From NCBI GenBank assembly GCA_028711115.1, contig JAQTSV010000001.1:582032-646031 (forward strand): 64,000 nt of DNA, read 5' to 3'. Shown one piece after another: positions 2,388 through 4,352 of this stretch. The notes under the pieces are model-generated. The model had not been told where the DNA came from, did not search any database, and saw only the letters and a program-made list of their open reading frames with translations. Source of the DNA: Candidatus Omnitrophota bacterium (GTDB lineage Bacteria > Omnitrophota > Gorgyraeia > Velamenicoccales > JABMQK01). A program made the translations under genes and the position numbers. Positions within the stretch are counted from its first letter, which is position 1, and every line of letters begins with the position of its first letter.

Positions 2388-2417
2388 TTGACAGATTTGT
2401 GGTTTAATTAATATATT
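2388..2417 (+). promoter_or_regulatory. Sigma70-like promoter feeding the TPP riboswitch
   Basis: TTGACA at 2388-2393, and ATATAT/TATATT 17-18 nt downstream. Confidence 0.45.
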
Positions 2418-2560
2418 GAGAAACGGGGAGGCCGTAAATCGGCCTGAGAGTTCCGTCCGCCACTAAAACTTTGGCGGACGCCCGCCGACGTATCAGTGGC
2501 GGGCGTATATTAAACGGATTACCCAATGAACCTGATCTGGATAATGCCAGCGGAGGGAAA
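2418..2560 (+). promoter_or_regulatory. TPP (THI-box) riboswitch aptamer
   Basis: Matches the conserved core: GGGGAGGCC..GGCCTGAGAG, then TACCCAATGAACCTGATCTGGATAATGCCAGCGGAGGGAAAG. The variable P3 region (about 2451-2517) is expanded into two GC-rich hairpins. Confidence 0.88.
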
Positions 2561-2568
2561 GTAAATTT

Positions 2569-2601
2569 ATACCCTTATGCTTTTGGCATAAGGGTTTTTT
2601 G
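2569..2601 (+). terminator. Riboswitch expression-platform terminator
   Basis: Perfect 10-bp stem (ACCCTTATGC / GCATAAGGGT), 5-nt loop and a run of six T. It lies 28 nt before the start codon at 2629. Confidence 0.8.
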
Positions 2602-2628
2602 TTGGGCGCGACATAAAAAGGAGAGTAT

Positions 2629-3675
2629 ATGAAGAAGCTTCCTAGGTTAGGAAAAATTACGCCGGATTTTTTTACCAAAGTCATCTATCCGCGGTTGGGC
2701 AATAAAGATTCATCCGTAATTGTCAAGCCGCAACACGGAGTTGACTTTGGAGTAATCTCTCTCGGCGGAAATGTAATGGTTATGTCCACAGACCCGTTTT
2801 ATATCGCCAGAGAACTCGGTATAGAAAAGGCAGCGTGGTTTGCAGTGCATATTTTGGCAAGCGACGTCGCGGTAAGCGGAATTCCTCCGCGTTATCTGGC
2901 GGTGGATTTAAACCTTCCTCCTGAAATGACAGAAAAAGAATTGCGTGGAATGTGGCAGACAGTGCATCTTGAATGTAAGAAATTGGGAATAGCGGTTATT
3001 ACAGGGCACACAGCGCGCTACAGCGGTTGCAACTATCCTATGGTTGGAGGAGCGACTATGTTCGGCGTGGGTAAACGCAAATCGCTCATCATCCCCAAGG
3101 CTCAGCCCAAGGATGCGATTATAATTTCCAAAGGCCCGGCAATAGAAACCACGGGGCTTATGGCAGCGTATTTTCCGGAATTCCTCGAAGAAAAATACGG
3201 AAGGGCATTTGTAAAAAAGGCACAAAGTATTTATTATCAGATGTCCACAGTCAAAGACGCATTAATCACGGCGCGTATAAAAGGCGTAACTGCCATGCAT
3301 GACGCGACCGAGTGCGGAGTTTTAGGCGGGCTTTTTGAAATGTCTCAGCACAGCCGCGTAGGCATGGATATTTTTCTCGACGATATTATAATTCAGGATG
3401 AAGTAAAAAAAACCTGCGAATGTTTTGGCATCGATCCGTATGTTTCCATAAGCGAAGGCACGCTCTTGGCAACGGTAAATAAGAAAAATGCCAGGAAAGT
3501 GGTTAAGACGTTGGAAGATGAAGGCATCAAATCCTGCATCGCAGGAGAAGTTGTTTCTTTCAAAGAAGGAGTCCATGTCTACAATAAAGGTAAAAAGAAT
3601 AAGCTTAAACATCCTGAAGTGGACCCGTTCTGGTCGAAGTTCGATGAATATCTCCGGAAAAAGAATAAGAAGTGA
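2629..3675 (+). CDS. AIR-synthase-related protein (PurM/ThiL/HypE/SelD superfamily), specific function unknown
   Basis: Strong SD (AAAGGAGAG). PurM-fold hallmarks: GVDFGVISL...MSTDPFY, ASDVAVSGIPPRYLAVDLNLP, AVITGHTARY. It sits directly under the TPP riboswitch. Confidence 0.8.
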   Translation: MKKLPRLGKITPDFFTKVIYPRLGNKDSSVIVKPQHGVDFGVISLGGNVMVMSTDPFYIARELGIEKAAWFAVHILASDVAVSGIPPRYLAVDLNLPPEMTEKELRGMWQTVHLECKKLGIAVITGHTARYSGCNYPMVGGATMFGVGKRKSLIIPKAQPKDAIIISKGPAIETTGLMAAYFPEFLEEKYGRAFVKKAQSIYYQMSTVKDALITARIKGVTAMHDATECGVLGGLFEMSQHSRVGMDIFLDDIIIQDEVKKTCECFGIDPYVSISEGTLLATVNKKNARKVVKTLEDEGIKSCIAGEVVSFKEGVHVYNKGKKNKLKHPEVDPFWSKFDEYLRKKNKK

Positions 3676-3791: not shown

Positions 3792-4352
3792 ATGATGGAT
3801 GATTCCAAAGGAAAAGCAGAGCAAAGGGCTAATGCCTTAAGGGAGATAGGTGTTGTTATCGATACCTGGGATGATATCTTTTCTGACTTTGATCCCCGGC
3901 CATTAAGTGAACGCACGGTGTCGGGAGATTTTTTAGAGGAGTTAAAGAAACGCTACAAAGAAACTGGCACGGGCGATTTTATCATCACAATTCATGCCCC
4001 CGTTTCATTAAAAAATGAAGAGTCGGAAAAGATGGTTACTAACCGCCTCAAAAAACATTTTCGTCAGAAGTTTTTGCAAAAGCAAAAAGTTCTTACCTTT
4101 ATTCGTATGCGGGGGCTGATGTTTGTTCTTATCGGCATTTGTTCATTGAGTTTTTTAACCCTGGCAACATATTATAAGTTCTTAAGCGAGCTGGCAATTC
4201 AGATTGCAGGTATTTTCCTTATGCCGCTTGGCTGGTTTGGATTCTGGGAAGGGCTTTCCAAACTTGTAGATACCTCACCGGTTGTTATACAAGACGAGAA
4301 GTTATTTGAGAAACTTTCAAAAGCAACATATCACTTCAAATATATCACATAA
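3792..4352 (+). CDS. Hypothetical membrane protein (soluble N-domain plus two TM helices)
   Basis: 186-aa ORF with no competing frame. Two hydrophobic helices (LMFVLIGICSLSFLTLA, IAGIFLMPLGWFGFW). No motif recognised. Confidence 0.6.
   Translation: MMDDSKGKAEQRANALREIGVVIDTWDDIFSDFDPRPLSERTVSGDFLEELKKRYKETGTGDFIITIHAPVSLKNEESEKMVTNRLKKHFRQKFLQKQKVLTFIRMRGLMFVLIGICSLSFLTLATYYKFLSELAIQIAGIFLMPLGWFGFWEGLSKLVDTSPVVIQDEKLFEKLSKATYHFKYIT

Follow-up and report, generated by a model that had tools for sequence, protein, structure and literature searches.

The 64,000-nt stretch of Candidatus Omnitrophota DNA analysed here (as a whole referred to as the window) carries at 2388-3675 a short leader followed by a single gene, which we call X. 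The leader comprises a promoter-like site, an aptamer of the thiamine pyrophosphate (TPP, THI-box) riboswitch class and an intrinsic terminator. X encodes a protein of the PurM superfamily. The original prediction, made from the sequence alone, had described this arrangement and proposed that X is a non-orthologous kinase for thiamine, its monophosphate or a precursor, or another ATP-dependent thiamine enzyme. Judged from its sequence and predicted fold, the leader contains a genuine TPP riboswitch with an intrinsic terminator behind it, and it is highly likely that the riboswitch is functional and controls a thiamine-pathway enzyme of a new family. A summary of the features and of the gene arrangements around relatives of X is given in Table 1.

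Table 1. Features of the window at and around X, and arrangements of X and its relatives at other loci (L, locus; P, protein).
Feature	Position or locus	Strand	Remarks
Sigma-70-like promoter: TTGACA 2388-2393, 18-nt spacer, TATATT 2412-2417	2388..2417	+	consensus match 11/12
TPP (THI-box) riboswitch aptamer, structured core ~2425-2560 (P2, J3/2 CUGAGA, P3, P4/P5)	2414..2575	+	RF00059
Expanded P3: base helix 2452-2456/2514-2518 and two GC-rich hairpins, ~2457-2477 and ~2478-2506	2452..2518	+	62-nt insertion in Rfam alignment, folds
Intrinsic terminator (putative expression platform): ACCCUUAUGC, UUUUG, GCAUAAGGGU, U-run	2571..2600	+	11 pairs (5 GC), loop 3, T-run
Shine-Dalgarno-like GGAGAG, 3 nt before ATG	2620..2625	+	read from sequence
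Gene X, 348 aa, PurM superfamily, uncharacterised subfamily	2629..3675	+	Pfam AIRS and AIRS_C
Codons of Cys116, Cys134, Cys229 and Cys263 of X	2974-2976, 3028-3030, 3313-3315, 3415-3417	+	
aptamer-X-ThiE-ThiD	L030, L041		
aptamer-(TenA)-X-TenA-ThiE-ThiL-ThiD	L050, L058, L093		
aptamer-X-ThiL-ThiD	L092		
aptamer-X-ThiE	L044, L064		
aptamer-Thi4-X	L013		Omnitrophota; X 73% identical to window protein; Thi4 sulfide-dependent
X-(TenA)-ThiE-(ThiL-ThiD)	ten loci		no aptamer detected
X-ThiN fusion	P0121, P0391, P0392, L026, distant P0189		P0121 62% identical to window X
ThiN-X fusion	P0140		
HcyBio-NifS-aptamer-X-NifS	L079		
aptamer-Thi4-X-Rrf2-CysK-like-HcyBio	L013		

Leader RNA upstream of X

The aptamer was evaluated with the Rfam covariance model RF00059. 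In a local search it aligns to the full model (positions 1-105) with 54.0 bits (E 4.8e-10), which is 0.3 bits under the curated gathering score of 54.3 bits. A scan of the whole window at gathering thresholds returned no Rfam match for this very reason, hence a threshold effect and not an absence. The shortfall itself is due to the 62-nt insertion in P3.

The pyrimidine-sensor arm is present and consists of P2 (GGGG/ACCC), the CUGAGA junction and the P3 base helix with a branched extension. The pyrophosphate-sensor arm P4/P5 with ACCUGAUCUGGAUAAUGCCAGCG...GGGA (2530-2559) matches the consensus near-perfectly, with a posterior probability of '*' throughout, and the 3' half of the aptamer, which forms this sensor, reaches 49.8 bits against an nhmmer profile. 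The predicted fold of the leader is well below that of shuffled sequences (z = -4.8). Thus what had been described for the leader is borne out: the consensus promoter and the near-perfect conserved cores (CTGAGA at 2444-2449, ACCTGATCTGGATAATGCCAGCG at 2530-2552 and GGGAA at 2555-2559) are present, the covariance model detects the aptamer, P3 is indeed expanded into two GC hairpins (~2452-2518), and the strong terminator is followed by a single gene.

In the close relatives L013, L019 and L024 a plain P3 hairpin stands in place of the branched P3 of the window. Enlarged or duplicated P3/P2 insertions were found in further aptamers preceding X, namely at L068 (1880-1980), L052 (3877-3961) and L078 (3826-3924); in L068 the insertion is a tandem repeat (CCCGCCAGAGGCGGATAAAC x2). 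Expansion of P3 is therefore common in this set of riboswitches and not specific to the window.

A P1 helix is not recognisable. All five P1 pairs are non-canonical in the RF00059 alignment of the window, and no P1 can be drawn in any of four Omnitrophota leaders (window 2410-2428 and 2557-2575; L013 2056-2170; L019 3148-3258; L024 342-458), the best duplex between 5' and 3' flank reaching -0.1 kcal/mol in the window and -0.4 to -3.8 kcal/mol in the three others. The TATATT -10 box of the window ends 7 nt 5' of the P2 GGGG, and -10-like hexamers are found at equal distance (~7 nt) from P2 in L013, L019 and L024. The promoter is a consensus match only, and six sites of such a match occur in the 1.7-kb region where 3.1 are expected. 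Missing P1 together with the hexamer close to P2 in all four leaders implies that the transcript may begin at P2. This suggests that the four leaders represent TPP riboswitches without P1 whose transcripts start at P2.

The terminator hairpin (2571-2595) consists of 11 pairs and a 3-nt loop followed by TTTTTTGTT, with a predicted energy of -15.5 kcal/mol. This hairpin recurs behind the aptamers of L013, L019 and L024, the differences being exclusively changes from A-U to G.U pairs. Its 5' half is, in the relatives, a repeat of the aptamer's own ACCCUUAU segment, which is not a feature of known RF00059 members with a terminator platform. Other than that, the 62-nt branched P3, the lack of a recognisable P1 and the predicted -10 box 7 nt before P2 set the window leader apart from them, while the CUGAGA junction, P2, P3, P4/P5, the pyrophosphate sensor and a terminator 10 nt downstream are shared. 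The riboswitch is a new and somewhat unusual representative of a known class.

By analogy with other terminator-type TPP riboswitches, the leader would act as an OFF-switch. With plentiful TPP the aptamer would be locked, the terminator would form and transcription would halt before X. With scarce TPP the G-run in the 3' strand of P4 (GAGGG, ~2552-2556) would pair with the emerging CCCUU of the terminator 5' half, delay the terminator and allow read-through into X. When the terminator 3' half is withheld from the fold, CCCUU forms pairs with the G-run after P4 in three leaders (window, L019, L024), and a weak co-transcriptional antiterminator of this kind is plausible from the modelling. Several predictions weigh against the switch in this form, however. 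The minimum-free-energy folds keep the terminator formed without ligand, the proposed antiterminator comprises only ~5 bp, and P1 is not evident. Constrained folding in which the terminator 5' half was forced to pair upstream returned the unconstrained fold and was uninformative.

A locus with an ortholog 93% identical to X (L011) has kept the terminator, while the aptamer is gone. Comparison of L011 1085-1170 with window 2513-2600 places 'GATTACCCTTATGC' in front of the terminator. The aptamer looks like it was lost by deletion between two ACCCTTAT direct repeats, one in the P2 3' strand of the aptamer and the other in the terminator 5' half. The gene upstream in L011 is a homolog of the window ORF (open reading frame) 3792-4352, meaning that the locus was also rearranged.

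Gene X, its protein family and its aptamers

X matches Pfam PF00586 (AIRS, 47.3 bits against a gathering score of 24) and PF02769 (AIRS_C, 73.7 against 23.1), and it contains the motifs GVDFGV and TGHTAR that had set it apart from canonical ThiL. This distinction holds in the NCBIfam scan. X stays far below the cutoffs of the equivalog models of ThiL (TIGR01379; 58.4 bits, cutoff 184.15; relatives of X 61-79 bits), HypE (TIGR02124; 94.2 bits, cutoff 251.6) and SelD (TIGR00476; 51.3 bits, cutoff 125) and does not match the PurM equivalog; it is thus no bona fide ThiL ortholog. Likewise X has no match at E<=1 to PF02110, the ribokinase-like family of ThiM.

The AlphaFold model of X is a confident one (predicted local distance difference test, pLDDT, 94.2; predicted template modelling score, pTM, 0.91). 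Compared to the PDB using Foldseek, ThiL, HypE and SelD are near-tied (E ~1e-21, template modelling (TM) score 0.66-0.76, 16-24% identity), and among the 106 matches at E<=0.001 those listed all belong to the PurM superfamily. The top matches are complexes of ThiL with nucleotides (PDB 3c9r, 3c9t, 3c9u; best E 1.6e-21, TM 0.66-0.70), with which X shares the two-domain PurM fold at only 16-20% identity. Five acidic residues are invariant in the X family (D39, D55, D79, D225 and E228) and fall into GxD, TDP, ASD and HDxTE motifs; from the reading of these motifs we take them to resemble the metal-binding aspartates of ThiL. In contrast to ThiL, X has an N-terminal GK loop, GHT for GGDT and a C-terminal DPFW helix. 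With SelD (PDB 3u0o, 2yye) X shares a GH(T/S) motif and an invariant lysine in the N-terminal loop, Lys9, which in the family profile falls opposite Lys20, the catalytic lysine of E. coli SelD (3u0o). Unlike SelD, however, X stands in a thiamine context, and its loop (LPRLGKITP) contains no Cys or Sec, the aligned position being variable and never a conserved Cys.

The family is large: relatives that share words with X number more than 6000, and at 50% identity 324 clusters have E<1e-30. The closest relatives of X belong to Candidatus Omnitrophota, and the range extends over KSB1, Calditrichia, Acidobacteriota, Patescibacteria and at least one archaeon. Members are named 'AIR synthase family protein' in the databases or, mislabelled, HypE (many at JGI). 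A description of the X family or of its TPP link was not found in the literature, nor do THI4 comparative-genomics papers mention it. On sequence grounds, X falls into a large branch of the PurM/ThiL/HypE/SelD superfamily that has no name as yet.

To survey the leaders, 104 loci encoding X relatives of 35-93% identity (~0.80 Mb) were searched using nhmmer with a profile built from the conserved aptamer 3' half; a MAFFT alignment of 20 aptamers misaligned the variable 5' half and was not used for a covariance model. The profile matched 31 loci, in each case on the strand of X and upstream of X or its operon, and nowhere else in the 0.80 Mb. In total 32 aptamers were found, and every one precedes X or an X operon. 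Using RF00059, 18 of 20 tested loci pass the gathering score (56-77 bits); further values are 70.5 bits for L007, 63.7 for L106 and a sub-threshold 50.3 for L080. The latter is the sole match in the clade with X-TenA-ThiE operons (L037 and relatives). Collapsed at 90% identity the loci form 89 groups, 28 of which carry the aptamer, and in a neighbour-joining tree the aptamer-bearing loci fall into at least four clades. The recurrence of THI-boxes before orthologs is thereby confirmed. It follows that the association of X and aptamer is ancient or was repeatedly acquired and is not a local accident. An aptamer followed by X alone is seen in the window and at no fewer than 12 other loci.

These results bear on the possibility that X is simply a HypE hydrogenase-maturation factor or a generic AIR synthase behind an incidental or non-functional THI-box. 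HypE is the best-scoring named family, both in NCBIfam (94 bits) and in the comparison of the family profile to the PDB (111 bits), the structures are similar (2i6r, 2z1e; TM 0.73-0.76), the DPFW of X aligns at the DP(V/L)PRIC tail of HypE, and the JGI labels point the same way. However, the score is far under the HypE cutoff. The C-terminal cysteine of HypE (PRIC tail) carries the carbamoyl/cyano group and is needed by the enzyme. It is absent from X, which ends in ...HPEVDPFWSKFDEYLRKKNKK, the family as a whole ending in DPFW plus helix. Neither hypC/D/F nor hydrogenase genes were found in the Pfam-annotated contexts of X, and all 32 aptamers in 0.8 Mb precede X, which unlike HypE is predicted to be under TPP control. 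We regard this reading as effectively refuted by these comparisons, leaving it hardly any probability.

Genomic context and function of X

Operon partners of X were checked by Pfam and NCBIfam. True ThiL is encoded beside X at L050, L058, L092, L093 and L102 by model (197-311 bits against the cutoff of 184; 276-311 for the operon partners) and at L037, L080, L085 and L026 by tblastn. Bifunctional ThiD (TIGR00097) is part of the X operon at nine loci (L030, L041, L050, L058, L092, L093, L037, L080 and L085; 340-363 bits against a cutoff of 205). The Thi4 next to X in L013 scores 308 bits against a cutoff of 148. Since genuine ThiL and ThiD are encoded in X operons, X is not a replacement for either of them in those organisms.

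The tblastn panel consisted of 22 proteins, including E. coli ThiM, ThiG, ThiH, ThiS, ThiF, ThiE, ThiC and ThiD as well as ThiL, TenA, Thi4 and ThiN. Over 102 loci it returned ThiE in 17, ThiD in 9, ThiL in ~8, TenA in 7 (flanking X in each case), ThiN and ThiC in 2 each and Thi4 in 1, and ThiM, ThiG, ThiH, ThiS and ThiF in none. That the window itself lacks thiamine genes stands for this panel over the 64 kb, thiamine transporters and thiamine pyrophosphokinase not having been specifically searched.

Fusions of X and ThiN recur on several independent contigs and in both orders (Table 1), which places the reaction of X directly next to thiamine-phosphate synthesis. At L106 the fusion gene stands alone and is preceded by a TPP riboswitch of its own. 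The X-ThiN fusion of the archaeon 'Ca. Norongarragalina meridionalis' adjoins ThiC and ThiL. Sequence and context thus identify the X family as a recurrent member of TPP regulons and thiamine operons that is repeatedly fused to thiamine-phosphate synthase.

Three further sequences deserve mention. P0398 joins X in frame to ThiE, the ThiE part being a truncated domain that stops after ~70 residues. An apparent X-PfkB fusion (P0211) was rejected as a frameshift artefact with an Arg-rich low-complexity tail. P0391 (VVB67191.1, L102 10001-11572) is labelled 'Bifunctional thiamine biosynthesis protein ThiDN' at NCBI, although its N-terminal module is AIRS/AIRS_C and not ThiD. By domain content, this label and the HypE labels at JGI are propagating mis-annotations.

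Could X be a second thiamine-phosphate or thiamine kinase, ThiL-like or ThiK-like, that makes TPP or thiamine monophosphate (TMP) from salvaged thiamine? Such an enzyme would suit reduced genomes in which X is the sole riboswitch gene, and the lone aptamer-X loci as well as the occurrence in Omnitrophota, Patescibacteria and one small-genome archaeon are in line with it. Moreover ThiL structures top the Foldseek list, regulon and pathway are shared with ThiL, the five acidic residues, including E228 in HDATE(C/G)G, resemble the DISDG of ThiL as far as motifs can be read, and the ThiN fusion would couple TMP synthesis to TMP phosphorylation. Yet true ThiL shares the operon with X in L050, L058, L092, L093, L037, L080 and L085 and lies beside the fusion in L102 and L026, a duplicate activity being unlikely, and X and its relatives reach no more than 58-79 bits on the ThiL model (cutoff 184). 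We therefore consider this reading distinctly unlikely.

A hydroxymethylpyrimidine (HMP) phosphate kinase, carrying out the second step of ThiD by the phosphate-to-diphosphate chemistry known from ThiL, would fit the archaeal loci L102 and L026, where the X-ThiN fusion holds the usual place of ThiD-ThiN beside ThiC and ThiL with no ThiD in view. The 'ThiDN' label points there too, and as in archaeal ThiDN an ATP-dependent enzyme is joined to a ThiN domain. The N-terminal module, however, is AIRS plus AIRS_C instead of ribokinase-fold ThiD, and the bona fide bifunctional ThiD present in nine X operons makes this assignment highly improbable. What had been proposed for X hence stands in its broad form, an ATP-dependent thiamine enzyme, on account of operon partners and ThiN fusions; the co-occurrence of X with genuine ThiL and ThiD speaks against its TMP-kinase and HMP(-P)-kinase options.

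In operons such as those of L093 and L050, genes are already present for HMP salvage, for the HMP(-P) kinase, for the enzyme that couples the two moieties and for the last kinase. Thiazole phosphate is left as the one input to which no gene corresponds, and we therefore infer that X supplies it. X would use ATP, act immediately beside thiamine-phosphate synthase (ThiE or ThiN) and deliver thiazole phosphate to it. That X serves the thiazole branch in this manner is the reading we favour, tentatively, at somewhat less than an even chance. In the simplest version X would be a hydroxyethylthiazole kinase displacing ThiM non-orthologously; a thiazole kinase in this strict sense is possible but, from the sequence context, already doubtful. 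X and ThiM have no relation in sequence or fold (ThiM is ribokinase-like, PF02110), and the likeness is one of functional analogy only. In classical thiM-thiD-thiE operons the position of ThiM matches that of X, and X holds the slot of ThiM in X-ThiE-ThiD operons. Yeast THI6 is a ThiE-ThiM fusion, so that X is joined to thiamine-phosphate synthase as ThiM is there. As a close alternative, X might convert the Thi4 product ADP-thiazole to thiazole phosphate; the ADP-thiazole hydrolase is still unidentified in archaea (PMC4215014).

Several points count against a thiazole role. The assignment argues from a pathway gap and from fusions. The search covered the loci, and ThiM, ThiG or Thi4 may be encoded elsewhere in the same organisms. 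Furthermore the E. coli queries may miss a very divergent ThiM or ThiS. The remaining difficulties come from the sulfur genes and cysteines described below.

TenA at its seven loci, and the equal distance of X from all characterised subfamilies, would also allow a different, undescribed ATP-dependent reaction on thiamine, for instance a PurM-like cyclodehydration repairing an opened thiazole or the processing of breakdown products together with TenA. The chemistry of PurM, PurL and HypE is the ATP-driven activation of an amide or formyl oxygen. The fusion to ThiN, however, points to a main-line precursor instead of a repair substrate, and the NifS/IscU context would be explained no better. Such a reaction appears improbable.

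One operon of the set has an odd member. At L080 (1705-2609) the sub-threshold aptamer is followed by an ORF resembling class-I S-adenosylmethionine (SAM) methyltransferases and then by X-TenA-ThiE-ThiL-ThiD. The ORF is similar to the DVU_1556 family (55 bits, below cutoff).

Members of the X family also lie beside sulfur genes, in 26 of the 89 groups, a second context that recurs as often as the thiamine one and that the original prediction could not have seen. The cysteine desulfurase NifS adjoins X in 20 groups and the scaffold protein IscU in 12; one NifS neighbour was verified (585 bits, cutoff 531). Other recurrent neighbours are LarE-family and other PP-loop ATPases, CysK, the sulfide-incorporating HcyBio, FdhD, MOSC and NIL. 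A simple thiazole kinase does not explain these neighbours. Thiamine and sulfur contexts are combined in three groups, L079 being one example. Thiamine-linked and sulfur-linked X proteins cannot be told apart by sequence, the median identity being 56% both within and across the two sets, with no position separating them. In the Omnitrophota clade (>=65% identity) the context varies among NifS, BioY, Thi4 and a bare riboswitch.

The cysteines of X are equally unexplained by a simple thiazole kinase. Among 89 relatives of at least 46% identity, Cys134 is conserved in 100% and Cys229, located in the active-site motif HDATECG, in 97%, followed by Cys263 (90%) and Cys116 (83%). None of these four is conserved in more distant members of the family.

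Three candidate clues from the neighbourhood were discarded. In L095 the gene preceding X bears a 'ThiI' Pfam label but is a generic PP-loop ATPase and no ThiI (NCBIfam 45 bits, cutoff 264), the class-V aminotransferase of L099 is divergent and does not qualify as a NifS equivalog, and adjacency to BioY and BirA is limited to one syntenic lineage each and was given no weight. L095 (8982-19054), L096 and L013 contain a conserved Omnitrophota 'sulfur island' with X at its head, in the order PP-loop ATPase or Thi4, X, Rrf2, CysK, HcyBio, ArsP-type permease, DsbD, redoxin, NifU, DUF5981, NifS and NifU_N.

The sulfur neighbours lead to an alternative in which X is an ATP-dependent enzyme mobilising or activating sulfur together with a cysteine desulfurase, either SelD-like on sulfide or persulfide or via its conserved cysteines. 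It would feed the thiazole of thiamine (e.g. through a sulfide-dependent Thi4) and possibly other sulfur insertions, with TPP control where thiamine is the main consumer. Besides the frequencies of NifS and IscU and the recurrent LarE-family, PP-loop, CysK, HcyBio, FdhD, MOSC and NIL genes, the loci L079 and L013, which unite sulfur genes, aptamer and X, agree with this, as do Cys134 and Cys229 in the close subfamily. SelD is often adjacent to a NifS-type desulfurase, as X is; Lys9 corresponds to Lys20 of SelD, and GHT of X resembles the GGHS of SelD when the motifs are read side by side. On the other hand, fusion to thiamine-phosphate synthase is not what one would expect of a sulfur supplier, yet X is fused to ThiN in both orders. 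Thi4 adjoins X in only 1 of ~100 loci. The cysteines are not kept in distant members, among them P0189, which is still fused to ThiN and riboswitch-controlled. To our knowledge no thiophosphate-type metabolism has been described. A sulfur enzyme of this kind that feeds the thiazole is a serious rival, although we hold it to be unlikely.

A combination of both, in which X couples sulfur from NifS to the formation of thiazole phosphate via the near-invariant active-site cysteines and SelD-like ATP chemistry, is quite unlikely as judged from the sequences. It would cover both contexts, the thiamine operons and ThiN fusions as well as the NifS/IscU islands. If true, NifS-coupled X might be the missing partner that sulfide-dependent Thi4 needs in vivo to work efficiently, or else belong to a third route to the thiazole.

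Surroundings of the locus and significance

The ten ORFs flanking X encode TrkH, a MacAB/OEP efflux set and proteins without assignment. Immediately 5' of the riboswitch lie two small, apparently secreted Cys-rich ORFs (1696-2004 and 2063-2290, + strand) without Pfam match. The one of 75 aa has ~18 Cys in its mature part of 51 aa, with CC, CxC and CxxxC runs reminiscent of metallothioneins. A hairpin at 2326-2345 follows the two ORFs. Over the whole window (1-64000, GC 40.6%) the + strand carries 65 of the 67 ORFs that are 110 aa or longer, an extreme coding-strand bias. A few kb downstream of X in the Omnitrophota loci L002 (10395-10785) and L004 (10209-10604) we noted matches to the cspA thermoregulator RNA, which are sub-threshold (59-61 bits, gathering score 78, E ~1e-12).

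Taken together, the sequence data indicate that X is very probably a new functional branch of a known superfamily and an unrecognised enzyme of thiamine synthesis or salvage. With respect to the RNA, the leader is of interest as a TPP riboswitch that, from its sequence, apparently functions with no P1 helix. If the link to cysteine desulfurases is real, it would bear on the true sulfur donor of catalytic THI4 thiazole synthases, which are of interest for plant engineering. Bacterial thiamine biosynthesis is regarded as essentially solved, and the X family with its thousands of members may represent a missing enzyme. If the link to thiamine is confirmed, a pathway gap would be filled in many uncultured anaerobes and a widespread mis-annotation corrected. 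Moreover, it would alter predictions as to which microbes in the environment synthesise, salvage or require B1 precursors.

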